Source: Candidatus Aenigmatarchaeota archaeon
Lineage (GTDB): Archaea; Aenigmatarchaeota; Aenigmatarchaeia; CG10238-14; SCSR01
Length of the DNA stretch: 64,000 nucleotides
Assembly: GCA_038998585.1 (NCBI GenBank)
Contig: JAVZGQ010000004.1
Location: 260 to 64,259 of the forward strand
Direction of reading: 5' to 3'
The notes under the pieces are model-generated. The model ran no database searches, was not told the origin of the DNA, and worked only from the letters and a program-made list of their open reading frames with translations. Positions 1,258 through 63,904 of the stretch are shown one piece after another; within the stretch, counting starts at the first letter, position 1, and the number at the start of each line of letters is the position of its first letter. A program made the translations under genes and the position numbers.

Positions 1258-2247
1258 TTACTTAAACCATTTTATTTCATCTATTCTCCATTTTGGGTTT
1301 ATGATATCATTAAAATTTGATTTCCAATTATTTTTGTAAGCCAGAAGACCAGTCCAAGCCACCATAACCCCATTATCCCCACTGTATTTATTAGGCACTA
1401 CAAACATCTTTACTGCCCTTTCTTCACACATTTTATTCACCATATCTTGCAGTCTTTTATTTGCAGCTACCCCACCAACTAACAAAACTTCATTTTTTCC
1501 TGTGTGGGCCAAAGCCCTTTCTGTCACTTCTGTCAACATAGCAAAACAAGTTTCTTGTAGAGAATAAGCAATATTTTCTTTTGAAATACCTTTTTTTAAT
1601 AAACTAATGGCCGCGGTTGCAATTCCACTATAACTCACATCCATTCCTTTAACCACATAAGGCAATTCTATATATTTTCCATTTTTAGCTAATTTTTCAA
1701 TTTCAGGGCCGCCGGGCATAGGAAGACCCATTTCTCTCGCAACCATATCCAAACAATTCCCTATTGGAATGTCTTCAGTTTCTCCAAACACTCTATAAAC
1801 TTCTTCAACAAAAGCTATTATTTGAGTATTTCCTCCAGACAAATAAACGAAGATAGGATCTTCGGCTTTAGTTGTAAGAAGACCAATCTCTAAATGTGCT
1901 ATTTGGTGACAAACAGGGATTAAAGGCTTACCTATTTTTTTTGAAATATCTTTAGCAAAATTCGCACCAACTAATAGACAAGGTGGTAAGCCAGCTCCAG
2001 CAACGTAAGCTATTATATCAACATCTTCAATTTTCAAACTAGCTCTTTCCAGAGCATTTTTAAGAACTCCATCAGCAACATTCTCATGATGAGATTTCGC
2101 CTCATTCGGCACTATACCTTTACCTAAAGCTGGTATATAAACACTTCTTTCATCTGCTAGAATTTCTCCCCTTTCATTTACAATTCCAATTCCAAATGTA
2201 TGGGCGCTCGACTCAACTCCAAGGCAAATTAATTCTTTTTCTTTCAT
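1258..2247 (-). CDS. kae1: tRNA N6-adenosine threonylcarbamoyltransferase Kae1
   Basis: 329 aa; LGVESSAHTFGIGIV N-terminus, metal-binding VCHQIAHLE and overall Kae1/OSGEP layout; no fused Bud32 domain. Confidence 0.9.
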   Translation of the reverse strand: MKEKELICLGVESSAHTFGIGIVNERGEILADERSVYIPALGKGIVPNEAKSHHENVADGVLKNALERASLKIEDVDIIAYVAGAGLPPCLLVGANFAKDISKKIGKPLIPVCHQIAHLEIGLLTTKAEDPIFVYLSGGNTQIIAFVEEVYRVFGETEDIPIGNCLDMVAREMGLPMPGGPEIEKLAKNGKYIELPYVVKGMDVSYSGIATAAISLLKKGISKENIAYSLQETCFAMLTEVTERALAHTGKNEVLLVGGVAANKRLQDMVNKMCEERAVKMFVVPNKYSGDNGVMVAWTGLLAYKNNWKSNFNDIINPKWRIDEIKWFK

Positions 2248-2401
2248 AAGATCAATTATTTAAAATTATATAAAAATTAAAAAATCTATGGATGTTGAAG
2301 GATTTTCTACCTTGTATAAATAATCGGAAAAAAATATTCAAGAGAAGATTGTTTAAGATAATCTAGTAGTATTTACATTAAAAAAATATGAGTGTAATTT
2401 T

Positions 2402-4576
2402 ATGAAAGACATAGAAATAGTTGATAAAGTTTTGTCTTTATATAACTTTAAGGAACTTAATCCGATGCAGAACTTAGCTATTAAATCAGGTCTTCTTAAA
2501 GGAAGAAATATGGTTATATCAGCTCCCACAGCTAGTGGTAAGACTTTATGTGCTGAGATAGCAATGTTAAAAACTTTTTTTGAAAAAAAGAAGAAGAAGG
2601 TTATTTACACCGTTCCTCTAGTAGCGCTAGCTGGAGAAAAATACCAAAATTTTAAAGAAAAATACGAAAAACTGGGATATAAAATAGCGATTTCTGTTGG
2701 GGATTTTGATTCAAGTGATCCTTGGCTTACTGATTATGATTTGATTGTTTGTACGAATGAGAAGCTAGATTCTCTAATAAGACATGGAGCCGGATGGGTT
2801 GAAGAAATTGGATTAATAGTCGTTGATGAAATTCATCTTTTAAATGATCCTAGTAGAGGACCGACTCTTGAAATCTTGTTGACCCGATTGAGAGAAATCG
2901 TGCCAGGAGCACAAATTCTTGCTTTGTCTGCAACCATAAACAATGCTAAAGAACTTGCTGAATGGTTGGATGCACAACTTTTAAAAAGCGATTTCAGGCC
3001 AGTTAAACTTTACGAGGGTGTTTGTTATGATTCAAAGATTTTCTTTTACAACAAAAAAGGATACGAGTTGAGTAATTTGGAACCAGAGTCAGCTATAGCA
3101 GAAAATGTTTTAAAACTAAAAAAACAAGCTTTGTTTTTTGTTGCGACGAGAAGATCTACAGAAAACTTAGCAGAAAAATTAAGTAAACTAACCAAGTTTT
3201 ATTTGAAAAAGGAAGAGGAGAAAAATCTTTTAGGGCTGTCTAAAGAAATATTAAACGTTTTAGAAGTACCAACACAACAATGTAAAAGGCTTGCATCTTG
3301 CATTAAAAGTGGAGTGGCATTTCATCATGCTGGATTGTTGGGAAAGCAAAAGAGATTAATAGAAGAAAATTTCAGACATGGATTAATTAAAATAATAGTT
3401 GCAACACCAACTCTTGCCTTTGGTGTAAATTTACCTGCTTTCCGTGTTATAATTAGGGATTTAAAAAGATATTATCCTGGTATAGGAACAGTTTACATTC
3501 CAGTTCTAGAATATAAACAGTTTGCTGGCAGGGCAGGAAGACCAGCTTATGATGAGTTTGGCGAGTCTGTATTGATAGCAAAAACAGAAGAAGAGGCTCA
3601 AGATATGGTCGATCATTTTATTATGGGTCAACCAGAGGACATTAAATCCAAGCTTGCCTTAGAGCCTATTTTGAGGATGCATACATTAGCTTTGATTGCG
3701 AGCGAATTTTGTAATTCAGAAGAATCTTTAAACAAATTTTTCTCAAAAACTTTTTACGCTTATCAATTTGGGAATACATTGATTTTAGAAGAGAAAATAT
3801 ATAATATTTTGGAACAGCTTATAAGTTGGGGACTCGTTGTTTTTAAAAATGGAAAATTTTTAGCCACAAAAATAGGCAAACGTGTTTCCGAACTCTATAT
3901 AGATCCTTTAACAGCTCATCAATTCATAGAAGCTTTAAAAAATATGATTAAAAAGAAAGTCCATCCTTTTGGATTGTTGCATTTGATTTCAAACTCAGTT
4001 GAAATGAGACCTTTGCTTTCTGTAAGGGTAAGCGAGTTTTCAGAGTTTGAAGATGTTTTGGTGAAAAGAGAGGATGAGCTTTTACAAAAAATTCCAGATG
4101 AATCTGAAATTGAGTTTGATGATTTCTTGAGAAGTTTGAAGACTGCATTGATGTTTGAAGCTTGGATAGAAGAAGCTACAGAAGATGAAATTTTAACCAA
4201 GTTTAGAGTTGCTCCGGGAGAATTTTATGGAAGAAGGGAAATTGCTGACTGGCTAATTTACTCTTTACAAGAGCTTGCTTTATTACTTGGATATAAAGAT
4301 TTGTTAAAAGAGATAAGAAAGTTGAGAATTAGGATGGAATATGGTATTAAAGAAGAACTTATACCTTTGGTTAGAATGAAACAAATTGGACGTATAAGGG
4401 CAAGAAAGTTGTTTAATTCAGGAATAAAGTCTTTGTTAGATTTGAGGAATATATCAATTGATAAACTTTCAGTTATCGTTGGACCAAATGTTGCAAGGAT
4501 TATTAAGTGTCAATTAGAAGGAAAAAGAGAAGATATGAAAAAGATAGATAAACAACAAACTCTTAAAAAATTTTAG
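2402..4576 (+). CDS. hel308: Ski2-like DNA helicase Hel308
   Basis: 724 aa; Walker A APTASGKT, DEIH box, C-terminal ratchet/HhH region; ends in TAG. Confidence 0.9.
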   Translation: MKDIEIVDKVLSLYNFKELNPMQNLAIKSGLLKGRNMVISAPTASGKTLCAEIAMLKTFFEKKKKKVIYTVPLVALAGEKYQNFKEKYEKLGYKIAISVGDFDSSDPWLTDYDLIVCTNEKLDSLIRHGAGWVEEIGLIVVDEIHLLNDPSRGPTLEILLTRLREIVPGAQILALSATINNAKELAEWLDAQLLKSDFRPVKLYEGVCYDSKIFFYNKKGYELSNLEPESAIAENVLKLKKQALFFVATRRSTENLAEKLSKLTKFYLKKEEEKNLLGLSKEILNVLEVPTQQCKRLASCIKSGVAFHHAGLLGKQKRLIEENFRHGLIKIIVATPTLAFGVNLPAFRVIIRDLKRYYPGIGTVYIPVLEYKQFAGRAGRPAYDEFGESVLIAKTEEEAQDMVDHFIMGQPEDIKSKLALEPILRMHTLALIASEFCNSEESLNKFFSKTFYAYQFGNTLILEEKIYNILEQLISWGLVVFKNGKFLATKIGKRVSELYIDPLTAHQFIEALKNMIKKKVHPFGLLHLISNSVEMRPLLSVRVSEFSEFEDVLVKREDELLQKIPDESEIEFDDFLRSLKTALMFEAWIEEATEDEILTKFRVAPGEFYGRREIADWLIYSLQELALLLGYKDLLKEIRKLRIRMEYGIKEELIPLVRMKQIGRIRARKLFNSGIKSLLDLRNISIDKLSVIVGPNVARIIKCQLEGKREDMKKIDKQQTLKKF

Positions 4577-4663
4577 TGGGGTTGCTGGGATTTGAACCCA
4601 GGTTACGAGCGCCCGAGGCTTCCACAGGATTTCGTGTCCTAAACCAAGCTAGACTACAACCCC
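4577..4663 (-). tRNA. tRNA-Pro (anticodon CGG) with a 12-nt insertion in the 5' strand of the anticodon stem (about 4620..4631)
   Basis: Hand fold on the minus strand: acceptor GGGGTTG/CAACCCC and T arm CTGGG-TTCAAAT-CCCAG. Removing AATCCTGTGGAA gives stem CGAGC/GCTCG and loop CTCGGGC. No encoded CCA. Confidence 0.8.
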
Positions 4664-9313: not shown

Positions 9314-10351
9314 TTAGGATACATTTTCAATATTTAAAAGGTTTTTTAATTCTTCTAAAATTTTTGTTTTGACTTCTTTTTCTTTTTTTCTATCTATTAT
9401 TCCTGCTCCAGCAGCTTCATGCCCACCACCGATCCCAAGCTTTCTAAATAATTCACCAATATCAATTTTTTTATCACCACTCCTTCCGTGAATTTTAACA
9501 CCTTTCTCAACTTCCTCAAAAATAAAAATTATCTTTTCTGGGTTTTTTGTCGATAATTTCGTGATAATTGCTGAACATATTCCCTTGTACTTTGGTTTGA
9601 TTTTTGATATTAAAATTTCACCATAGATTTCAAGATTTTTCTTATACTCCTTTTTACATCTCAAAAATTCGTAATTGAATTTTTTTGAGGCAGTGATAAT
9701 TTCTCGATTTTTTAATAATTCTTTCAAATTTTTAAGACCAACAAGAATTTCCAAAGTTTTTTCCGAACCTAAGACTGAGATAGAGTTGTTTAAAAAAATA
9801 GCGGCCCTGCCAAAATTGTTTTTCCAAATGTTTTTTTTGTTTTTAATCTTTACCAAGTCTTTACAATCTTCAATCCCGAAATCTCCAACTGTTCCAACAA
9901 TCGCAACCCACTTTTTTTCTTTAACTAAATCTGAGAACATTTTATAAATAACATAACTTGTCGGCTGATAGATTTTTGGATTTTCTAGCCTAGGATTTAT
10001 TAAAACCACTTTTTTAGAATTTAAATCTTTTCCAGGGTGATGATCAATTATCAACATATTTTTTCTTAAGCTTAGCAAATGTTTTTCAATCAAGTCTGTT
10101 GGTACATCGACTGTAATTATTTTTTTAAATCTCTTAAGCTCAGTTTTTAACTTTTCTATTTTAGTGAATCCTGTTTCTATACACTTCACTTTCTTTTTCA
10201 TTTTTTTAAGAACAAAAAGAGAAAGTGTGGCTGAACACAGGCCATCTGCATCTGCATCATAGACCAAAACAACCTTTTCCCCCCCTTTAATATTTTCAAT
10301 AAACTTTCTTCCTTTCTCAAGCAAATGTTCAAACTTTTTCAGCACATTCAC
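9314..10351 (-). CDS. DHH/DHHA1 phosphoesterase (RecJ/GAN-like)
   Basis: 345 aa; DADADGLCSA, IIDHHPG and GGGHEAAGAG motifs. Confidence 0.8.
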   Translation of the reverse strand: MNVLKKFEHLLEKGRKFIENIKGGEKVVLVYDADADGLCSATLSLFVLKKMKKKVKCIETGFTKIEKLKTELKRFKKIITVDVPTDLIEKHLLSLRKNMLIIDHHPGKDLNSKKVVLINPRLENPKIYQPTSYVIYKMFSDLVKEKKWVAIVGTVGDFGIEDCKDLVKIKNKKNIWKNNFGRAAIFLNNSISVLGSEKTLEILVGLKNLKELLKNREIITASKKFNYEFLRCKKEYKKNLEIYGEILISKIKPKYKGICSAIITKLSTKNPEKIIFIFEEVEKGVKIHGRSGDKKIDIGELFRKLGIGGGHEAAGAGIIDRKKEKEVKTKILEELKNLLNIENVS

Positions 10352-18226: not shown

Positions 18227-18375
18227 TGCAGGGGGTGGGATTCGAACCCACGAAGGGACTAACCCAGCAGGTTCCTTCTTTCATCTTAAATCAAAGCTTA
18301 AGGGTTAGTGTGCATCTTAAGCACCGCCGAGTGCAAAAGCACTCTCTGCCGCCTTTTCCGCTTGGCTACCCCTGC
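18227..18375 (-). tRNA. tRNA-Leu (anticodon UAA) with two insertions: 23 nt at 30/31 (18323..18345) and 43 nt at 37/38 (18273..18315)
   Basis: 149 nt. Acceptor GCAGGGG/CCCCTGC, D arm GCCAAGCGGAAAAGGC, long variable arm TGGGTTAGTCCCTTC, T arm GTGGG-TTCGAAT-CCCAC. Removing 66 nt gives a perfect arm GCAGG-CTTAAGA-CCTGC. Confidence 0.75.
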
Positions 18376-20494: not shown

Positions 20495-20592
20495 TGGACC
20501 GGCCGGGATTTGAACCCGGAGCCTCTTCATAGCAGTTGAACTCATGCCTTTTCCATAATTAAGGAAGCGATCTACCATTGATCTACCGGCCC
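20495..20592 (-). tRNA. tRNA-Ala with 26 nt of intervening sequence (12-nt insertion 20549..20560 plus about 14 nt more within 20530..20548)
   Basis: Acceptor GGGCCGG/CCGGTCC has the G3:U70 Ala identity pair; D arm GATC-AATGGTA-GATC; T arm CCGGG-TTCAAAT-CCCGG. Anticodon GGC (favoured) or UGC depending on the second splice. Confidence 0.7.
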
Positions 20593-31099: not shown

Positions 31100-31862
31100 A
31101 TTTATGTTTGGGTTTTTTGAATTTTACAAAAAGTTTGGTAAAACCCCAAATTATAATCAATATTATGCCAGAAATAAGGAAAATCATGAAAATTTGATTG
31201 AGTTGATTAAAAATCAAATCTAGTATATTTTCGCTTATTGGCATTTCTTTTAAAATCTTTTCTGACATCAATTTTTTGAAATATGGTAGTAAGAAATAAA
31301 ATATTCCTATGAAGAGGAACTCGAAGCCAAAAATTTTGAGCCTGCCTGTCCAGGTTTCTATTGAGACGAAAAGTAAAATACCAAATATTATTGTTAATAT
31401 GTAGAGGGGTTTTATGATGCTGCTGAAAAAATTATGTCCCTTAAAACTGAAGAAAACAAAAATATCTTCACCAGTTTTTATTTCTTTTAAACATTCAGTA
31501 ATTTCACATTCGTAATTCTTATAATATGTTTGGTTAAAAGATTTTTCGGCTATTAGATTAAGCATATAGTTAGGGTTTGTATTTATTATTTCAGAGCATT
31601 TCAAGCTTATGTTGTTTGGTAGTTGTATAGATTCATCTGGTTTTAGATTACAATATGTTGCTGTAGCGTTATATATTTCCTCAATTTCTAACGTTCTATT
31701 CTTCACAGCCTCTTTGAAAAGAATTGTAAAAAGATTTTTTGCGTTATCATAGTTAGTAAGATTGTATATGAAAAATGTCAAAATCGATAGAGATAGAAAA
31801 AGTGAGAATAAAAAGAGTGTTGCGGTTTTTGTTATGTTTCTTATTAAACCCATTTTAATCAT
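31092..31862 (-). CDS. integral membrane protein, unknown function
   Basis: 256 aa; N-terminal TM, extracytoplasmic Cys-containing domain, four C-terminal TM helices. Confidence 0.5.
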   Translation of the reverse strand: MIKMGLIRNITKTATLFLFSLFLSLSILTFFIYNLTNYDNAKNLFTILFKEAVKNRTLEIEEIYNATATYCNLKPDESIQLPNNISLKCSEIINTNPNYMLNLIAEKSFNQTYYKNYECEITECLKEIKTGEDIFVFFSFKGHNFFSSIIKPLYILTIIFGILLFVSIETWTGRLKIFGFEFLFIGIFYFLLPYFKKLMSEKILKEMPISENILDLIFNQLNQIFMIFLISGIILIIIWGFTKLFVKFKKPKHKSK

Positions 31863-32565
31863 CTTTAAAAAAACTTAATATTTTTTTCTGTTTCTTTTTA
31901 TTTAAAACTTCTTCTTTTGTTATTCCAAGAGCTTTCAAGACACGCATACTTGCAGGGAGAATCTGATGATTAATATAATATTCTTGATCATATTCACCAA
32001 GTTTGACATCTTCAACTGGTTCAGCTCTATCTGAAATAGAGCCAGAGCCTTTTACTATCACGAAACCTATGACACTCCCCTCACCTATTGGTCTTCCCCT
32101 AGCTTTTGCCTTTTCTGCTGCTCTTACATGCGGTCCAATTTGTTCATATTGGTTTAATGGGCGGGTAATTTGTTCAAAAATTGTCAAATCTTCTAAAGGC
32201 ACTTTTCCCTCTTTAATTTTTTTAATTGTATCGCGAACTAACTGAACCGCTTTAGCAGGATTTTTTTCTCTAAGAATTGTTACTAAAACTTTTCTTTGAA
32301 TTTCTTTTGCCAGTGCACACCAATCTCTACGAACAGTTTTTCGGTGCTAGAAAGCACTTTCGAACCCACGAACTTCTAGATTCCCTTCATAATCAATTAA
32401 AGCGTATCTTTTCTTTGCACCTACTTCACCTTTTTCTCTAGCCACAAAAATCCCAACTTCATACAAACCTCTGAATTCTAGTTCTATAATCCCTGGTAGT
32501 TGTTTGTTAACTTTTTCCGCGAATTCCAAGGCCCTTTTCTTCAAATATTCAATTTTTTCATTCAT
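31855..32565 (-). CDS. polB: family-B DNA polymerase, C-terminal (thumb) cistron, interrupted by a 21-nt TAG-containing element
   Basis: ATG 32565 preceded by GAGGTG. NEKIEYLKKRALEF..LPGIIELEFRGLYEVGIFVAREKGEVGAKKRYALIDYEGNLEVRGFE, then [SAF*HRK], then TVRRDWCALAKE...GPHVRAAEKA...EYYINHQILPA, all in one frame. Confidence 0.85.
32338..32358 (-). other. candidate bulge-helix-bulge mini-intron inside polB
   Basis: Minus strand TTCG(32364..32361)-AAA-GTGCT-TTCT-AGCAC-CGAA(32343..32340)-AAA: 4-bp central helix flanked by two 3-nt bulges plus a 5-bp inner hairpin. Contains the in-frame TAG (32349..32347). Confidence 0.6.
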
Positions 32566-32798
32566 TAATTACACCTCGCTCTTATTATAATATAGAATCT
32601 TAATATTTAGTGAATTCACAATTTTACCTTATAACCACATAACCATCACTACTGAACAGATCTAGAAGATATTCAATACCACACTTTTTGAGAATTAAAT
32701 ATGTTAAATTATATGATCAATTTTCATCTTAGAACTCCAAGATTCAAATTATAGATAAACTTTGTGAAAAATAGATAATTCTTTATTTTTAATTATTT

Positions 32799-34595
32799 TT
32801 AACCAATTGTAGCGAAACAAGAATCAGTATCAGCATAAATTACTTCAAAACCTTCTCTTTTTGCCATTTCTATTACTTGAGTTATATAATATCTTCCAAA
32901 AGCCGCAACCGCGGCTCCACACTCTCTTCTATACCATCTGCTCCCAAAAAACCCGAAATAACCATAGACTGCATTACTAAGTATCTTAAGACCATGTTGC
33001 ATATTATTCAATTTTTTGAGTTCTTTAGAATTTTTCTCAATCTTTTTTATTTGTTCTTTAATTTTTTTTCTCTTTTCAATTAATTCCTCTAAATGTTTTG
33101 GTATGAAACCTTTATTTTTTATACAAAAATGCCACTTGGTTTCAGGAACTTTGTTTTTTTCTTTACATTCAATATGCTCACAATTTAGAGTTTCTGGACT
33201 TATGTTATGAGTAACTATTATTGTTGGGTACAAACTTCTGAAATCAAAAACTAAAATGTCTGAATGAATTCCCTTTTTTGGTTCGATTACTATTGCTCCT
33301 TTGTAAGCTCGATCCATCTTCCTCTTTTCTATTTCTTCTGTTTTTGGTCTATTCGGTATTATTACGTTATCAATAAAGGCCTTTCTCATATAAAAGGCTT
33401 CTACAAGCTGGGAATAAGTGTTCCTACACACATCAAATGCCAAAAGACCAGTTAATCTGCTTAAGGTAAATATTTGAGGCAAGATTAGTTCAGAGAGTTT
33501 AAAAGTTAAGACAGAATCATGTAAGCTATATTCAGCCAATCTTTCCATTTCCTTCTTTTTACTCCAAATTTCCACCATTTCCTTATATTTCAATTCCTTT
33601 TTACCAATTCCAAGCAATTCTTGTGCCACCTCATTCAAAGTTAAAACTTCGCTTTTCAGATTTGCTGATAAAATATGGTCAACGAAGTTGAATAGGTCCA
33701 TATGCACCCTTCCCTTAATTTTTGTTGAGCTTACTCTACCTCTTCTAACTAAATTTATTGTTGAGTTATCTCTCCCAAGTTTAATGGGGATCTTCAGTTC
33801 ATCAGCTCTTTCTTTAAGCTTTGGAAAATCAAAATTATCACCATTATAAGTGCATATGAAGTCTGGATCTTCTTCTTCTACAATTTCTAAAAACCTTTCT
33901 ATTATTTCTTTTTCACTTTTGATTGATTCTACATAATCTGGCTGATTTTCCCAGTGTTCAGATGTTAAGACTATTTTCTTTCCTTTATTTGAAACGAGGC
34001 TTAGCATAATAATTTTTGATTTTCCATTTTCTTCTATGAATTCTATATCAAAGGCCAGGACATTTAGCTTAACATCTTTTTCTCGTTTAATTGGCTTAAC
34101 AGAATTAGCTTTTATTATACAGCTCACTTTATAATTTTCTTTATTCTCCATCTCTTCTCCATCTACCTCAATCCAGTTCATAGGCTCAATTTGCCTGTCT
34201 ATCAAGTAGCGCTTGTAGAGTGGGATATCATACTCATAAGTTTCTTCTACATCTTCCCAATCTTTCACAATTTTTCTTATTTCCTGAATTTTTCTTGGGT
34301 TATCAATCACCACTTTCAGAATTTTTATATCACCAAGCTGTAATTTTTTTTCTGTTACTATAATTTTGAGTATTTTAGTTTCAAGATGTTTTGTGTCAAT
34401 AGTTTCAATTTTTTTCTTAACCTCGCCGATCTTGTCTTTCTTTGGCATTACATAAAAGTAAGGATAAAAGGTTTGATCCAAAACCAAGAAGCTCTTGCCT
34501 TTAGAATCTTTACAGTAAAGTCTGACAGTAGTTTTATTTTCTATTACTGTGTAATCTGCATCTAAAAGGAGTAATTTTTTTTTCAATAAAATCAC
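32799..34595 (-). CDS. polB: family-B DNA polymerase, N-terminal cistron (exonuclease, palm and fingers through motif C)
   Basis: 598 aa; ExoI FDIEF, ExoII YNGDNFDFP, motif A DFRSLYPTII, motif B KILSNAVYGYFG, motif C YADTDS; ends ...CFATIG-TAA. Confidence 0.9.
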   Translation of the reverse strand: MILLKKKLLLLDADYTVIENKTTVRLYCKDSKGKSFLVLDQTFYPYFYVMPKKDKIGEVKKKIETIDTKHLETKILKIIVTEKKLQLGDIKILKVVIDNPRKIQEIRKIVKDWEDVEETYEYDIPLYKRYLIDRQIEPMNWIEVDGEEMENKENYKVSCIIKANSVKPIKREKDVKLNVLAFDIEFIEENGKSKIIMLSLVSNKGKKIVLTSEHWENQPDYVESIKSEKEIIERFLEIVEEEDPDFICTYNGDNFDFPKLKERADELKIPIKLGRDNSTINLVRRGRVSSTKIKGRVHMDLFNFVDHILSANLKSEVLTLNEVAQELLGIGKKELKYKEMVEIWSKKKEMERLAEYSLHDSVLTFKLSELILPQIFTLSRLTGLLAFDVCRNTYSQLVEAFYMRKAFIDNVIIPNRPKTEEIEKRKMDRAYKGAIVIEPKKGIHSDILVFDFRSLYPTIIVTHNISPETLNCEHIECKEKNKVPETKWHFCIKNKGFIPKHLEELIEKRKKIKEQIKKIEKNSKELKKLNNMQHGLKILSNAVYGYFGFFGSRWYRRECGAAVAAFGRYYITQVIEMAKREGFEVIYADTDSCFATIG

Positions 34596-42225: not shown

Positions 42226-43349
42226 TTTTCCTCCTCAAATTTTGCAATTAGTTCAATCATTCCTGTTCCAGATGGAATTACTTGGCCTATCATTACATTC
42301 TCAAAAATTCCCTTGAATTCGTCTACTTCATTCCTTATAGATGCTCTTACCAAATGTTTGACTGTTTCTTCAAAGGCGGCTCTTGCAAGGATGGATGTTT
42401 GGGATCCAGCAACACCATATCTACCTATAGATTGAATTCTTCCTGTAGATGTCATGATATCGCCAACAAGAGTGATGTGTCTTATGTCGACATTTAGACC
42501 TTGTTCTTGTAAAGTTTTAATAGACTCCTTAATTATAACATTTCTGGCAGCTTCTATTCCCAAAACCTTGAAAGTTTCGTGAATGTCATTTGTGATGGTT
42601 CTTGTACCATCGACTTCTTCCATTTTTAAAACTTCTTCAAGATTTGAACCGAGTGTGTTTATCAACCAGTCTTCCCCCTCTCTTCTAACAATCGCATTTT
42701 TAATATCTTTTATACCCTCAAAATGAAGGTTAAGTATTTTTTCTCTCAATGCCTGAAGTTCTTTGATGTCAGATTCTTTTTTTGGAGACACAACAATAGT
42801 TTTTGTCCTTTCCTTTACTCGAACTTCTGGGAAACTTTCTTTAATCAGTTTTGCTATTTTACCCAATTTCCTCAAATCTTCCACATCTATTTCAATACTA
42901 TTTTCATTCAGGTTTATAGAAACACCCTTCACTATGTTTGAAATTCTTTTCTCAACTATACTTTCGGCTAAATCTCTTGCACTTTCCATGTTGTTGAATT
43001 CTCTTTTAAGATAAATCTCCATCACAGGAGTTTCCAATTCTTTTTTAGCATCAAAAATTTCTACAAGTCTAGGCAAACCGTAGGTGACCTTAATTCCCGC
43101 AGAACCAGCAAAGTGATAAGTACGCATTGTCATTTGAGTTGCAGGTTCTGAAATGCTTTGAGCAGCAATGATTCCAACAGCCTCTCCAGGTTCAAACATC
43201 AATTTAAGGAAATTTTTTTTAACAGTCTCCAAAAGCTTCTCTTTCTTCTCTTGACTTAATTTTAATTCTTTCGCTGTTTTTTCCACTTCATCTATTAAAA
43301 TTTTTGGAAGTTCAACTTCAGATAAATTGTTCTGCAATTTTTCTGACAT
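42222..43349 (-). CDS. rpoA2: DNA-directed RNA polymerase subunit A'' (Rpo1C)
   Basis: 375 aa; [28 protein letters not shown] trigger-loop region; overlaps the A' stop by 32 nt. Confidence 0.95.
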
Positions 43350-46300
43350 TTATCCCACCCCTTTCAATTTTAGATGGGTCCAGACCATCTTCCCCAGCTA
43401 AAAACTGTATTATTCTGTTGGAACTATCTCTTACAGTCCCATCGTACTCAACTTTAAGATCTTGAAGTGCTCCAACGAGTCTTCTTTCCATGTAACCAGA
43501 GTGTCTAGTCTTAAGAGATTTATCCATCAAAGATTCTCTACTGTTCATTGCGTCAAAGAAAAACTGGAATGGTGTGAGACCACTTTTAAACCCTCTGTCA
43601 ACAAACCCTCTTGCTTGTAAGCTCATATCTCCAATTTTGAAGTGTGGGAATGTTCTTTCATGATAGCCTTTTTCCACTCTCTCGCCCATTATAGTCTCTT
43701 GACCTATGAGAGCGGTTGTTTGGACAAAATTCACGATACTACCTCTTGCTCCACTTCTTGCCATGTTAATTATGGAAGTTTCTTTCACACATTTCATTAG
43801 TACTTCTTCCACTTCATTTAAGGCTTTACTCAACCTTTTCTTTATCAATGTTTCCAGACTTTCTTTTGGAGTCCTACCTATCAAAACTTTAAGTTCTCCT
43901 TTTTCAAAATCCTTGATCATATCATCTACATCTTTCTTAACATTTTTAAGTACAATTTCTATTTCATCCCTTGCCTCTTTTGGCAAGTCTAGCTCTGAAA
44001 TACTAACAGAAAATCCGTATCTTGTTATATATTCAAGAGAAAGTTTTATCATCTTGAACAAAAAGTTGCTAGTGAACTCTGCCCCGTATTCTCTCTCCAT
44101 CTTATCAATTATTTTTCCATCTTCGTCACCCAAGGCTGCTTTATCGATTACCCCAGAAATAAGTTTACCGTCTTTAATTATCACCATATCACCTGACTTT
44201 GCCTTATGTTGGATTGAAAAATCTTTAGGCAAGAATAAATTAAATATTTCTTTTCCTGTCATAGTTTGTTTGTCAGGTATTTCTATCTCCGGGTCAACCT
44301 TTCTTATTAGGTCTACAAAATCTCTCCTCTCAAATTTTTTATCGTCTTTAGTCAATAGATAAAGGCCGGAAATACAATCTTTTGTGGCACCAATAATAGG
44401 ACCAGAGAATCTAGGACTTCTTATATGTTTGTGAACATCCATTAAACACAAAGCTTCTACTTGGGCCTCTTCTGTTTGCGGTAAGTGTAAGTTCATTTCA
44501 TCTCCATCAAAGTCAGCATTGTATGGTGGGCAGACAGCCGTGTTAAGCCTGAATGTCTTGAATGGCATCACTTTAACCCTATGTGCCATCATACTCATCC
44601 TGTGAAGACTAGGCTGTCTGTTGAAGAGTGAAATATCACCATCTATCACATGTCTTTCAACTATGTAGCCTGGTGCAAGTTCTTTACAAATTTCCTCTTT
44701 ATTCGACTCTGTGATTTTTTTCCTTCTTCCGTCTGGTCTTATTATGTAATTTGCACCGGGCCAGACTTCACTACCATTCATAACAAGTTTTTTCATTTCT
44801 TCCAGATTCTTTTCATTCACTTTAATAGGGACTGTTAATTCTTTAGCTACGATTTCTGGCACACCAACTTCGTCCAAATCGATCAAAGGATCAGGGCTTA
44901 TAACAGTTCTAGCCGAGAAGTTCACTCTTTTTCCAGCGAGATTTCCTCTAAATCTTCCTTCTTTTGTCTTCAATCTTTGAGATAGAGTTTTCAAAATCCT
45001 ACCCGATCTATGTCTTGCTGGAGGCACGCCAGAAAGCTCATTATCAAAATAAGTGCTAATATGATATTGAAGAAGTTCCCAGAGATCTTCGATGATGAAA
45101 TCTGGTGCACCAAGATCTATGTTTTCTTTTAACCTTTCATTTATCCTCACAATATCGACAAGCTTGTGTGTTAAATCATCTTCCGACCTTTCTCCAGTTT
45201 CTAGAGTTATCGATGGTCTTACAGTTACAGGCGGTATTGGCAATACTGTAAGGACGAGCCACTCGGGTCTCGTGTTTTTAAACCCAATAATGCTCAAGTC
45301 TTCTGTTGATATTTTTTCTAATCTTTCCCTAATTTTTATTGGATTGATTATTTCATTGTCTTCAATAAAAGTATAGGGTTTAATGAGCTTAATTTTTCCT
45401 TGTGTTGAACTACAGTATGGACATTTTTTCTTTACAATCTTGGCAAGTTCCTTGAAAGGAATTTTTTCACTTTTGATTCTTTTTAAATCTTTTTCCTCAA
45501 TTAATATTCTACCACATTTTCTACAAAACATCTTCAAAAGCGTGAGTATAAACTTTACATAATGAACATGAATTATTGGTCTTGTTAATTCAAGTAAGCC
45601 AAAATGTCCCTGGCATTCTCCAACACTACCACCACAAGTCCTGCATCTTACACCAGGATCAACGACTCCTAGCCTGGGATCCATAAGTCCACATTCGATC
45701 GGATATCCTTCTTGGTCATACAGCTCTGTTTTTGTAATTTTTGCTACTGCCATTTTTTTTATCAATTCTGGATTGATTAGACTAAACTCCATTTTCTTGA
45801 CCGCCATTTCTTCACTCCCTAAAACAATTTTCGGATAAATTAACATGCTCTTTAGCTCATCTAACATTAGCTTGAAAGCATAACTCATCTCTACATCAAA
45901 GATCTTGCTTTCACCACATATAGGACAATACTTCCTGTTCTTTACCTTATCATATATAGCGACTAAACCACATTCAGAGCAGATAGGAACAACAGTTTTA
46001 TCAGAATCGAATCTCTCTTTCAAAACAAGAGCTGCGCCATGTGCTATCAAAACATCTTTTTCCATTTCACCTAATCTTAAACCACCTTCCTTACTTCTTC
46101 CCTCTGTTGGTTGCCTTGTTAACAGGGTTACAGGTCCTCTAGATCTTGCGTGGATCTTGTTCGAGACAAGGTGATCTAGCTTTTGATAGAAACACGGTCC
46201 AATAAAAATTTCGGCCTCAAACTTTTTTCCAGTTCTCCCATCAATCATAACTTCTTTACCATCGTCTCTAAAACCATAAGACTTTAACATTTTTCTTATT

Positions 46301-47604
46301 TCTTCTTCTGATGTTGGGTTAAAAATCGGGGAGTAAATAGTTTTACCAGAGATGGCTGCTACTTTTGCTGCAATTTGTTCGAGCAATTGACCAACTGTCA
46401 TTCTTGATGGAATTCCATGCGGGTTGAATATTATATCAGGGACAATCCCGCTTTCGGTGAAAGGCATATCCTCTTGCGGAAGAACAATTCCTATAACACC
46501 TTTTTGCCCATGTCTACTTGAAAACTTGTCTCCTATCTCAGGAATTTTCAAGCTCCTCATCCTAACTTTAACAAGTTTTGTTCCATCTATCGTTTCTGTT
46601 ATAAAAACTTTGTCGACAATGCCACTATCACCATGTCTTATTCTTACAGAAGTTTCCCTTATGTTTTCTATCCCTGTTATAAACTGGTCCATAGTTCCTA
46701 AGAACCTCAGAGGAGAAATCCTTCCAACCAAAATTTCATCAGACTCTATCTTAGTTTCTTGATTAACTATACCATCTTCCGGCAAATGTTTGTAAGCATC
46801 TTCACCAGCATAGCCTCTAACCCCTGGCTCAGGGATCCCTATTACATCTTCTTGCCCTCCCATGTATCTTTTCTGTTCAGCCTCATATGTTCTGAACATA
46901 TAAGACCAAAAAAGCCCCCTTTGAATTGAGCTTGAGTTGATTATTATTGCATCATCCATGTTAAAGCCCTGGAAGCATGCAATAGCGACTATTACATTTG
47001 TTCCATTTGGGTGTTTTTCATATCCTGCAATTTTGTGTGCATGGGTTTGGACAAGAGGAACTTGAGGATAAATCAATACATTGGACTTGGTGTCAACTCT
47101 GTTTAAATAGTTTGTGGCGAAAAGGCCTATTGATTGACCAACCATTTTTGCCCCATAGTTTACTCTATCTCCTCTGTTAAATTCAGCATAGGGGATGAAG
47201 GACGCCAAAAAACCAAGAATTGTGGCCGGATTAATCTCAAGGTGAGTATGCTCAGGAGTTAAATCCCCTTCCTTTAATGCAATATAACAATTTTCCTCTT
47301 CCTCAGCATCGAGATATTCAATTACACCTTCCGTTATTAAATCTTCCCATTTCATGGCACCTATTTTGAGTTTTTGTATGTGCTCTTCTGTTAGTTTAGG
47401 CTTGCCATTTTCAACAATTATAAGAGGTCTTCTCACCCTTCCACTGTCCGTCAAGATTTTGACTTCATCTAAATGTTTATGATAAGCGACATTAACCTGA
47501 TAAGGAATTAAACCCTTTCTTCTTCTATCTCTTATTTCGTTTACAAATTTTTCAGGCTCTTTTGTCGTCCCGACAAACTTACCATCAATAAATACATCAG
47601 CCAT
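43318..47604 (-). CDS. rpoB1-rpoA1: fused DNA-directed RNA polymerase subunits B' (C-terminal half of B, aa 1-599) and A' (aa 600-1428) in one frame
   Basis: B' part: [15 protein letters not shown], Zn ribbon CSECG..CPICG, ending [21 protein letters not shown]. It runs directly into [35 protein letters not shown] (A'). No stop between them. Confidence 0.85.
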
Positions 47605-49855: not shown

Positions 49856-49992
49856 TCCCCGGAGCCGGATTTGAACCAGCAACCCACCGGTTTCTAGTGA
49901 GCAACTGCTGATACCAAGTACCAAAGTACTCAGCTACAGCCGGTTGCTCTACCATTACTCCAGTTATTCTATCCTGTTTGAGCTATCCGGGG
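49856..49992 (-). tRNA. tRNA-Tyr (anticodon GUA) with a D-loop insertion (about 49956..49976) and a 42-nt canonical intron (49892..49933)
   Basis: C1:G72 acceptor CCCCGGA/TCCGGGG; D stem GCTC/GAGC encloses 30 nt; arm ACCGG-CTGTAG[42 nt]A-CCGGT. The canonical intron has a 6-bp inner helix TGAGTA/TTGCTCA (one G-U pair) next to 3-nt bulges. Confidence 0.8.
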
Positions 49993-58138: not shown

Positions 58139-58230
58139 AGCCCCGTGGTGTAGTGGTCAAGCACACAAGGCTCTGGTCATATGAGATTGGTGGTAACCTT
58201 GGGACGCCAGTTCGAATCTGGCCGGGGCTA
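58139..58230 (+). tRNA. tRNA-Gln (anticodon CUG) with a 19-nt intron at 37/38 (58177..58195)
   Basis: A1:U72 acceptor AGCCCCG/CGGGGCT, D arm as in archaeal tRNA-Gln, arm CAAGG-CTCTGG[19 nt]A-CCTTG, T arm GCCAG-TTCGAAT-CTGGC. Confidence 0.8.
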
Positions 58231-62538: not shown

Positions 62539-62729
62539 TAGCGGGGTGGAGCAAGCGTAAGCCTCTAAGCCTGGAGTGCTCGTCGAGAATAATACTTGAT
62601 TTGTGTTTTTCGCGAAAGGCTCATAGGCTAAGGCTAAGACACCCGAAAGGCAATCCAATAGCCCAGGAAGGTCGTTGGTTCAAATCCAAAAGATGTTGGT
62701 GTAATACCAGCTTCTGGAGAACCCCCGCT
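62539..62729 (+). tRNA. initiator tRNA-Met (anticodon CAU) interrupted by five putative insertions totalling 115 nt
   Basis: 191 nt. Insertions: 14 nt in the D loop (within 552..570; about 556..569), 585..616, 625..639, 647..668 and 689..720. Removing them gives AGCGGGG-TG-GAGC-AAGCCTGGAGT-GCTC-G-TCGGG-CTCATAA-CCCGA-AGGTC-GTTGG-TTCAAAT-CCAAC-CCCCGCT-A (76 nt) with A1:U72 and three G-C pairs next to the anticodon loop. Confidence 0.7.
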
Positions 62730-62867
62730 ATTCAATCTCTAATTTTATTGATTTTTTTAGTATACAGAAATTTTATTGGAATATAATTCAGTATATTTGT
62801 AGATAGTTTTTGCACTGTCAATCTTTTTTTCATCAGAATTTTAAAAAAGGAAATCAATACTAAAATT

Positions 62868-63821: not shown

Positions 63822-63904
63822 TGGGTCTGGGCGGAGTTGAACCACCTTCTCGGCCTTGTTTGCCCTTGATTAAGGGCCGCGTCCTACCGTTAGACTACAG
63901 ACCC
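63822..63904 (-). tRNA. tRNA-Val (anticodon UAC) with a 12-nt insertion inside the anticodon (63860..63871, position 34/35)
   Basis: GGGTCTG..CGGCC-CTT[AATCAAGGGCAA]ACAA-GGCCG..GGTGG-TTCAACT-CCGCC-CAGACCC-A. Exon GCCC pairs with intron GGGC as a 4-bp helix between 3-nt bulges. Confidence 0.8.

Follow-up and report, generated by a model that had tools for sequence, protein, structure and literature searches.

Probable 12-nucleotide introns of one A...AA design in tRNA genes of an Aenigmatarchaeota archaeon

Within a 64,000-nucleotide (nt) stretch of an archaeal contig (JAVZGQ010000004.1 of assembly GCA_038998585.1, positions 260 to 64,259; hereafter the window), the tRNA genes for valine, alanine and proline each carry a 12-nt insert on the minus strand, exactly where an earlier note on this DNA had reported them. 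These inserts are most probably genuine tRNA introns, which would be removed by the splicing endonuclease EndA with the exons rejoined by an RtcB-type ligase; we put the probability of this reading at about 0.85. They follow a single design that recurs elsewhere in the window and in related genomes: one A, a loop of 4–8 nt, four nucleotides that can pair with the exon at a distance of 2 nt upstream from the 5' junction, and a terminal AA. The evidence is drawn from the anatomy of the inserts, the restoration of cloverleaves upon their removal, their behaviour among related genomes and the statistics of the A...AA signature.

The Rfam tRNA model (RF00005, searched with Infernal) matches all three genes and places surplus bases in their anticodon arms, 12 each in Val (15 bases against 3 model positions) and Pro (23 against 11) and 26 in Ala (35 against 9). 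Deletions of one or two segments of 9–50 nt were enumerated in each gene, and every possibility was scored by a rule-based cloverleaf test that kept class-I products with U8, U33 and a purine at position 37. This strict rule was used instead of an earlier scheme, in which BHB-like (bulge-helix-bulge) deletions were scored by ARAGORN and which proved too permissive. Removal of the 12 nt was said in the earlier note to restore the anticodon arms, and it does so in Val and Pro, with 21 of 21 stem pairs formed, whereas in Ala a second intron must be removed as well. The predicted products have the expected identity elements, namely the UAC anticodon in Val, G3:U70 together with GGC in Ala, and CGG together with G37 in Pro. 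The exon–intron complementarities reported in that note are correct: GCCC/GGGC in Val and TTCC/GGAA in Ala pair at four of four positions, and ACAC/GTGG in Pro at three of four. A comparison with boundaries set by an automated predictor gave a mixed outcome. ARAGORN with introns allowed (-i) returns the same intron in Val, reported as Val(tac) of 71 bases with the intron aatcaagggcaa, whereas Pro and Ala are mis-called, because in this mode the program permits one anticodon-loop intron only.

The tRNA-Val(UAC) gene (63822..63904, minus strand; Rfam score 54.4 bits) is 83 nt long, comprising a 71-nt mature sequence and one intron, and reads GGGTCTG TA GTCT AACGGTA GGAC G CGGCC CTT[AATCAAGGGCAA]ACAA GGCCG on the minus strand, with the intron in square brackets. 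The junction slips by one base, and the 12-nt intron (63860-63871, minus strand) is either AATCAAGGGCAA at position 34/35 or ATCAAGGGCAAA at 35/36. Three deletion products form all 21 stem pairs, with the anticodon loops CTAACAA, CTTACAA and CTTAAAA; among them, CTTACAA is the loop found uninterrupted in relatives. The intron bases GGGC pair with exon G29-C32, and in the minimum-free-energy (MFE) fold the pairing between exon and intron extends to 6 base pairs (bp), GCCCUU/AAGGGC. A reading of this gene as tRNA-Leu(UAA) with a canonical intron at 37/38 was rejected, its body being Val-like with a short variable arm.

The tRNA-Ala(GGC) gene, recognized by its G3:U70 pair (20495..20592, minus strand; 53.2 bits), spans 98 nt, of which 72 are exonic and the remainder belong to introns of 12 and 14 nt. 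The 12-nt intron AATTATGGAAAA (20549-20560, minus strand) lies at 33/34; the second, AGTTCAACTGCTAT (20529-20542, minus strand), lies at 39/40 and was absent from the earlier description. The minus strand reads G CTTCC TT[AATTATGGAAAA]GGCAT G[AGTTCAACTGCTAT]GAAG. The deletion test yields six products, and only the one with the loop TTGGCAT (anticodon GGC) matches the Ala identity pair G3:U70; all 21 stem pairs are formed after deletion of both introns (TT↓GGCAT and G↓GAAG, where the arrow marks a junction). In the first intron, the central helix H joins U28-C31 to GGAA, the 3' bulge is AA↓G34, and the outer helix consists of C27-G35 and G26-C36. The MFE fold contains the outer helix, a 3-nt bulge, the helix and an 8-nt loop, with the register slipped by one base. 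In the second intron, H joins G34-A37 to UGCU between the bulges UG↓A and AU↓G. The two motifs overlap in that the outer helix of the first intron uses G35 and C36, which are needed for the helix of the second, suggesting that splicing would be ordered or would involve a switch. The Arg call made by ARAGORN for this gene was rejected as a one-intron artefact.

The tRNA-Pro(CGG) gene (4577..4663, minus strand; 45.9 bits) has 87 nt, corresponding to 75 plus 12, and reads GGAC A CGA[AATCCTGTGGAA]GC CTCGGGC GCTCG on the minus strand. The deletion test returns a single product with 21 of 21 pairs, CGAGC-CTCGGGC-GCTCG, which is reached through two equivalent junctions that place the intron AATCCTGTGGAA (4620-4631, minus strand) at 29/30 or 28/29. 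Helix H is formed by the pairs C25-G, A26-U and C27-G, the 3' bulge is AA↓G, and the outer helix comprises A21-U33, G22-C32 and G23-C31. For this gene, Ser and Arg calls by ARAGORN were rejected as one-intron artefacts.

The strict BHB motif (hBHBh', defined by a pair of 3-nt bulges together with an upper helix h' of at least 2 bp) is the substrate of alpha4 and alpha'2 EndA enzymes. It is not formed by the 12-nt introns, where h' is missing and the 5' splice site sits in the hairpin loop. The earlier note had described a short loop in place of the upper helix, and indeed the 5-nt loop leaves no room for h'. Several longer tRNA introns of the window, as well as an element in the DNA polymerase gene polB described below, do have two bulges and h'. 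As read from the sequence, the outer exon helix beside the 3' bulge is longest in Pro (3 bp), with 2 bp in Ala and only 1 bp in Val. The proposal that 3-nt bulges flank the 4-bp helix on both sides is thus compatible with the sequence for the 3' bulge of Ala and Pro, whereas the xx↓A bulge of Val is predicted to be paired. The further proposal of a minimal bulge-helix-loop (BHL) intron class is right in that the introns share one design, but this design corresponds to the relaxed hBH/BHL type already known from ARMAN-2 (PMC3239211).

The source organism is, to judge from its gene content, a DPANN archaeon of the phylum Aenigmatarchaeota, because the marker genes of the window are archaeal (split rpoB, aEF-2, family-B DNA polymerase, Hel308, and archaeal glutamyl- and threonyl-tRNA synthetases, GluRS and ThrRS) and its closest proteins come from metagenome-assembled genomes (MAGs) of Aenigmatarchaeota. 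All relatives of GluRS with 75–82% identity belong to hot-spring MAGs of Candidatus Aenigmatarchaeota, and the neighbouring proteins of the window are 75–84% related to proteins of Ca. Aenigmatarchaeota MAGs. Two window proteins are even 100% identical to proteins of an Aenigmatarchaeota MAG in NCBI (P0001 and P0241), although exact-sequence look-ups of two window proteins returned no match. The GC content of the window is 29–37%. Syntenic loci of relatives were obtained via three neighbour proteins: GluRS (loci L001-L004), the NTPase adjoining the Val gene (L007-L012 and L014-L016), and Hel308 adjoining the Pro gene (L013, L022 and L023). An exact-pattern scan of metagenomes with the Val exons separated by a free gap gave no match, and the stems differ in the relatives; a metagenome scan for Hel308, for which the peptide seeds were of low complexity, gave a single locus only.

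Among these genomes, the Val gene beside the NTPase has exactly one mini-intron per lineage, at four different positions overall. Both the window and L007 have the intron at 34/35 (in L007 it is AACTAAAGGGTAA, with G29.U in place of the helix pair G29-C); it is located at 29/30 in L009/L010 (AGCGAGCGGAA), at 37/38 in L011/L012 (ATGAGAATTTGAA), and at 23/24 in L014 (AGTTTAGAACAA), L015 (AGTAGATAATAA) and L016 (AGTTAAGAATAA). The introns at the last three positions are 11–13 nt long, and the uninterrupted anticodon loop in all of these loci is CTTACAA, exactly as predicted for the product of the window gene. Likewise, the Pro mini-intron occupies three different positions across the window and its relatives. 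In L023, a 12-nt intron TATTCAAGAGAA lies at 37/38 and the anticodon stem is uninterrupted; in L013, a 13-nt intron, best placed as AATCGGTCTAGAA with the helix CTAG/CTAG, lies in the D-loop and the anticodon arm is intact. The anticodon stem and loop of both genes read as the predicted spliced product of the window. The Ala exons are identical across four genomes, and all variable columns fall within the loops of its two introns. The loop of the first intron varies as AATTAT, AATTGT or AAGAATT and is followed by an invariant GGAAAA; the second intron varies in relatives only in its loop and its length (14–16 nt). Since the same tRNA has its intron at different positions in genomes whose neighbour proteins are 70–85% identical, introns are apparently gained, lost or re-placed quickly in this lineage.

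One insertion site, 29/30, is used in four tRNAs, namely Pro of the window, Gln of L007, Val of L009, and the initiator tRNA-Met (iMet) of L014 and the window. All four have a common architecture: the outer helix is made by exon bases 21-23 and 31-33, and the intron is bound by exon bases 25-27. At position 26, the pair between exon and intron is A-U in Pro and Gln and G-C in Val and iMet, a covariation that supports the central helix at this site.

The A...AA ends were counted at 22 independent intron sites of the window and its relatives. They were found at 15 of these sites, including 14 of the 17 non-canonical ones and one of the five at 37/38; fewer than 0.06 are expected per site given an interior intron A frequency of 0.26 (binomial tail about 1e-14, with a correction of up to 3-fold for the choice of junctions). 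The single A, third in the 5' bulge, and the AA, which opens the 3' bulge, occupy the only bulge positions that are encoded by the intron; the remaining bulge positions are exon bases and are variable. The tetranucleotide that pairs with the exon shifts to suit each insertion site (GGGC, GGAA, GTGG, GCGG, TAAT, CTAG and CGAA). Beyond these two features, no similarity was found among the 22 introns between different tRNAs, and their loops are unrelated. The earlier note had left open a common recognition rule or a common origin. The recurrence of the ends and the tracking of the insertion site by the tetranucleotide support a shared recognition rule for A...AA introns. The idea of a common origin is not supported, nothing being common beyond A...AA and site-dictated bases, with orthologues carrying the intron at different positions. 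The recurrence of A and AA is therefore best read as an adaptation to the EndA of this lineage and not as evidence of shared ancestry. A preference of the enzyme for A would be reasonable, because the first bulged intron adenine is stacked by an arginine and a tryptophan (R275/W384) in a solved EndA–RNA complex (PMC12397907).

The alternative that survives best is common descent or transposition, in which the mini-introns would be copies of one mobile intron that inherited its A...AA ends. Such ends do recur in many genes, introns of Thermoproteales have been inferred to transpose (PMC4090602, PMC4033280), and the Pro intron of the window in its context, ACACGA↓AATCCTGTGGAA↓G, resembles that of Gln in L007, ACACGA↓ATTTGGTGGAA↓G, both at 29/30. 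The latter likeness can, however, be explained by the identical exon context of the two genes. Besides A and AA, only a pairing tetranucleotide that varies with the site is shared, even orthologous introns are unlike in the sequence and length of their loops, and an element of 11–13 nt is too small to hold a mobile core. Accordingly, we regard this explanation as unlikely.

Further evidence on the design comes from a protein-coding gene. The family-B DNA polymerase gene polB is split into two adjacent genes (31855-34595, minus strand), which encode an N-terminal subunit of 598 amino acids (aa) and a C-terminal subunit of about 229 aa; the N-terminal gene ends at 32799 and the C-terminal gene starts at 32565, leaving a spacer of about 230 nt. 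This layout matches that of Methanobacteriales, whose C-subunits of 215–219 aa are among the matches. The C-terminal-subunit gene contains a 21-nt element AGTGCTTTCTAGCACCGAAAA (32338..32358, minus strand) with an in-frame TAG, which on its sequence is a strict BHB intron in a coding gene and a candidate mRNA intron in DPANN. Its central helix is UUCG/CGAA, both bulges are AA↓A, and h' is GUGCU/AGCAC. The bulge signature that the earlier note had seen here is thus confirmed, and the motif is moreover of the strict type. The predicted removal of the element gives LEVRGFE-TVRRDWC, identical to uninterrupted relatives of 226-232 aa. Elements of 23 nt are present at the same site in L017 (~3990-4012) and L019 (~3952-3974), where they shift the frame unless removed. 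The central helix and both AA↓A bulges are invariant in the three genomes, and h' is fully compensated, reading GUGCU/AGCAC in the window, GUACUU/AAGUAC in L017 and GGUUG/CAACC in L019. The element is absent from many relatives; the sequence of L002 ends 60 nt before the site. In L019, an open reading frame (ORF) of the LAGLIDADG type (1897-3057) lies between the polB halves on the opposite strand.

The bare motif, by itself, occurs in the window at chance level. The pattern of four nucleotides, two nucleotides, A, a 5-nt loop, the complement and AA is matched 43 times in the window, compared with 38 +/- 6.6 times after dinucleotide shuffling, and 119 against 114 +/- 12 times when loops of 4–6 nt are allowed; the strict BHB motif with the A/AA signature has 23 matches against 27 in shuffles, and among these only the polB match was followed in relatives. 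The scan that the earlier note had proposed is thus unable to find introns by itself, and a motif scan of the whole genome would be uninformative for the same reason. The significance of the inserts stems from their tRNA context and from the relatives, not from the motif.

These counts bear on an explanation less probable than common descent, according to which the complementarity is incidental and the enzyme would measure from the mature tRNA body, like the eukaryotic ruler, or would recognize some other fold. It would fit the chance frequency of the motif, as well as the near lack of an outer helix in Val and the mismatch in Pro. However, the helix survives replacements of G-C by G.U and of A-U by G-C across orthologues and across tRNAs, and the same geometry, with a perfect 4-bp helix and a compensated h', is found in the polB mRNA, where there is no tRNA body. 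The positions of the introns, at least eight different ones in tRNAs, are also beyond the reach of one fixed ruler. We therefore consider this explanation improbable. The weakest alternative, that the inserts are retained in pseudogenes or expanded anticodon arms or have other true boundaries (e.g., Val as AAC or UAA), could appeal to the fact that splicing itself is deduced from sequence and that the cloverleaf test alone also permits the Val loops CTAACAA and CTTAAAA, but it is very improbable given that exons are perfectly conserved and inserts variable in Ala, that each gene, set beside conserved neighbours, is the positional orthologue of the only Val, Pro or Ala gene, that insert-free relatives read exactly as the predicted product, that six of the seven other tRNA genes of the window are interrupted as well and can hardly all be pseudogenes, and that A34, or a Leu anticodon on a short-arm Val-like body, would be implausible.

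The following scheme is our proposal for which enzyme acts, how it cleaves, in what order splicing proceeds and why A is preferred. Each intron would have the minimal build that a relaxed hBH/BHL substrate permits, and the EndA would be one of broad specificity, of the (alpha-beta)2 or epsilon2 type or alpha4 with a specific loop. The pre-tRNA would take up an alternative hairpin, in which the four intron bases bind exon bases lying 2 nt upstream of the 5' junction and the resulting 4-bp helix sets the distance between the two cuts. The terminal AA and the first base of the 3' exon would form the 3-nt 3' bulge, the single intron base A would complete the 5' site, and the loop of 4–8 nt would stand in for h'. 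EndA would then make one cut behind the second base of the 3' bulge (AA↓x) and another in the loop, at the position symmetric to the first across the helix (xx↓A), and an RtcB-type ligase would rejoin the exons. As this fold competes with the cloverleaf for introns located in stems or beside the anticodon, splicing would take place on an alternative conformer of the pre-tRNA. Genes with several introns would be spliced in an order, or through a conformational switch where the motifs overlap.

Several observations weigh against the view that these inserts are introns recognized in this way. The chief weak point is Val, which on its sequence would be a more relaxed substrate than any motif that could be documented here as cleaved: both exon U's meant to form its 5' bulge are predicted to be paired in the MFE fold, and next to the AA↓A bulge the outer helix h has the single pair G28-C36. 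The central helix of Pro holds an A24.G mismatch, and the 37/38 intron of Val in L011 has a poor central helix in the A...AA register, no convincing register having been found for it. Neither EndA nor RtcB was detected in the 322 kb made up of the window and 23 loci, where EndA was sought with a regular expression for its catalytic motif and by tblastn with the Methanocaldococcus jannaschii EndA (the query having been verified against 1a79). Splicing and the exact junctions are themselves deduced from sequence, the junctions were picked among slip-equivalent placements in favour of the signature, and several boundaries, both in the relatives and in the iMet, Tyr and Leu genes, were parsed by hand.

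Besides Val, Ala and Pro, the window has five further tRNA genes, giving eight genes with 14 introns in total, or 1.75 per gene: one each in Pro, Gln and Val, two each in Leu(UAA), Ala and Tyr, five in iMet and none in Asp. The iMet gene (62540..62730, plus strand) has 191 nt, corresponding to 75 plus five introns of 15, 32, 15, 22 and 32 nt (62554-62568, 62586-62617, 62626-62640, 62648-62669 and 62690-62721, plus strand), and four of the five have A...AA ends. Its predicted product of 75 nt forms 21 of 21 stem pairs, with A1:U72, the anticodon-stem pairs GGG/CCC and the loop CUCAUAA, and the mature iMet of L014 is almost the same. Homologues of the iMet introns at 29/30 and 64/65, with different hairpins, occur in L014 and L016. 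In two relatives the iMet 5' acceptor strand (AGCGGGG) is present twice, the additional copy being placed some 28 nt upstream of the iMet gene (in L009 at 9733-9760 and in L016 at ~9745-9772); it may represent a leader element, a remnant, or a piece of another processing motif.

The tRNA-Tyr(GUA) gene (49856..49992, minus strand), parsed by hand with C1:G72, has two introns, a 23-nt one in the D-loop (49955-49977, minus strand; GCUC AA↓A...GAGU AA↓U) and a 42-nt one at 37/38 (~49892-49933, minus strand). The tRNA-Gln(CUG) gene (58139..58230, plus strand) has a 19-nt intron at 37/38 (58177-58195) without A...AA ends. Its intron set differs among relatives: Gln of L007 (811-907) has 11 nt at 29/30 and 13 nt at 37/38, and Gln of L011 (4208-4292) has a 12-nt intron in the D-loop and none at 37/38. 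The tRNA-Leu(UAA) gene (18227..18375, minus strand) contains a 23-nt intron at 30/31, for which no convincing central-helix register was found, and a 43-nt intron at 37/38; the block GCTTAAGATGC, which runs from exon G31 through the anticodon loop into the intron, is kept in L002. Standard tools missed or mis-called five of the eight genes. Run with their defaults, neither Rfam nor ARAGORN recognized iMet, Tyr or Leu, and the Pro gene was mis-called by ARAGORN; the labels that ARAGORN does give are Ser(gga) for Leu(UAA) and Asp(atc) for Tyr.

Such figures raise the possibility, which we hold tentatively, that this lineage has the densest and most mobile endonuclease-spliced introns known, and that their uniform build comes from a mechanism generating them de novo. 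Candidates for such a mechanism, in place of descent from older introns, would be a hairpin-templated local duplication, or reverse splicing by EndA and RtcB followed by fixation in DNA, joined with selection that keeps the tRNA genes interrupted.

Two further observations concern the gene content of the clade. The Hel308 proteins of several relatives (P0250, P0266, P0267, P0270; L013) have about 1130-1170 aa and contain intein and LAGLIDADG domains (PF14890, PF14528), and the window Hel308 has 724 aa without an intein or LAGLIDADG domain; mobile elements of several kinds appear, from such domains, to be active in the clade. The window also encodes rpoB' and rpoA' in one ORF of 1428 aa (43318-47604, minus strand) without a stop codon between them, which is either a real fusion of the RNA polymerase B' and A' subunits or an assembly error.

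The closest known system is the pre-tRNA-Cys(GCA) of ARMAN-2, in which a 13-nt hBH/BHL intron at 59/60 is cut in vitro by the epsilon2 EndA (PMC3239211); this BHL substrate was reused in a structural study of 2025 (PMC12397907). The introns described here resemble it in their 4-bp central helix, one true 3-nt bulge, a second site located in a hairpin loop, the lack of h', the length of 11–13 nt, a non-canonical position and a DPANN host. They differ in being known from sequence alone, in the Aenigmatarchaeota host, in their positions (23/24, 29/30, 33/34, 34/35 and the D-loop), in the consistent A...AA ends, and in a far higher density with turnover of position between close relatives. DPANN EndAs with an L3 loop go together with many disrupted tRNA genes in a survey that covered other phyla than the Aenigmarchaeota (PMC5829648). 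Multiple and non-canonical introns, with transposition inferred, are also described in Thermoproteales and Thaumarchaeota (Sugahara 2008 and Fujishima 2010, as cited in PMC4033280, PMC4090602 and PMC8450103). The similarities to these lineages comprise one to several scattered BHB-type introns per gene, rapid lineage-specific gain, and ordered splicing where motifs overlap; the evidence for transposition there, however, consists of sequence-similar introns in different tRNAs, whereas the similarity seen here is only structural constraint. The published maxima are three introns per tRNA gene, and 71 introns in 46 genes of Pyrobaculum calidifontis (PMC8450103, PMC4033280), compared with five introns in one gene and 14 in eight genes of the window.

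Nuclear tRNA genes of Cyanidioschyzon merolae have introns down to the same minimal length (11 bp), at ectopic positions and with hBH/BHL junctions, up to three per gene (PMC3728597). This alga is, however, a eukaryote with a different endonuclease, and evidence for an A...AA signature is lacking there. The polB element can be compared with the BHB intron in the protein-coding cbf5 gene of Crenarchaeota (Watanabe 2002; PMC2738675): both are strict BHB introns in a coding sequence, their removal restores the protein, and their presence varies among relatives, whereas the polB element differs in lying in the C-subunit gene of a split family-B polymerase, in its DPANN host and in its length of only 21–23 nt. 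Taken by sequence, the length, position and motif of the 12-nt introns are all within known limits and do not constitute a new class.

The three mini-introns are ordinary for archaeal tRNA processing, and it is the lineage-level intron density, the shifts of position, the iMet gene and the polB element that are more notable. How archaeal tRNA introns originate, move and are retained is an old open question, for which the earlier evidence came mostly from Thermoproteales, with introns that are longer and older. In the present lineage, the same tRNA carries an intron of 11–13 nt at different positions in genomes with 70–85% identical proteins, and gains and losses can therefore be counted. The introns are so small that each base has an assignable role, and the minimal rule of A, 4 bp and AA is testable in vitro. 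Because standard tools fail on five of the eight tRNA genes of the window, the "missing tRNAs" of DPANN MAGs may often be an annotation artefact. If the predictions are true, the limits of BHB splicing would be extended by a tRNA gene with five introns and by an essential replication gene dependent on RNA splicing.

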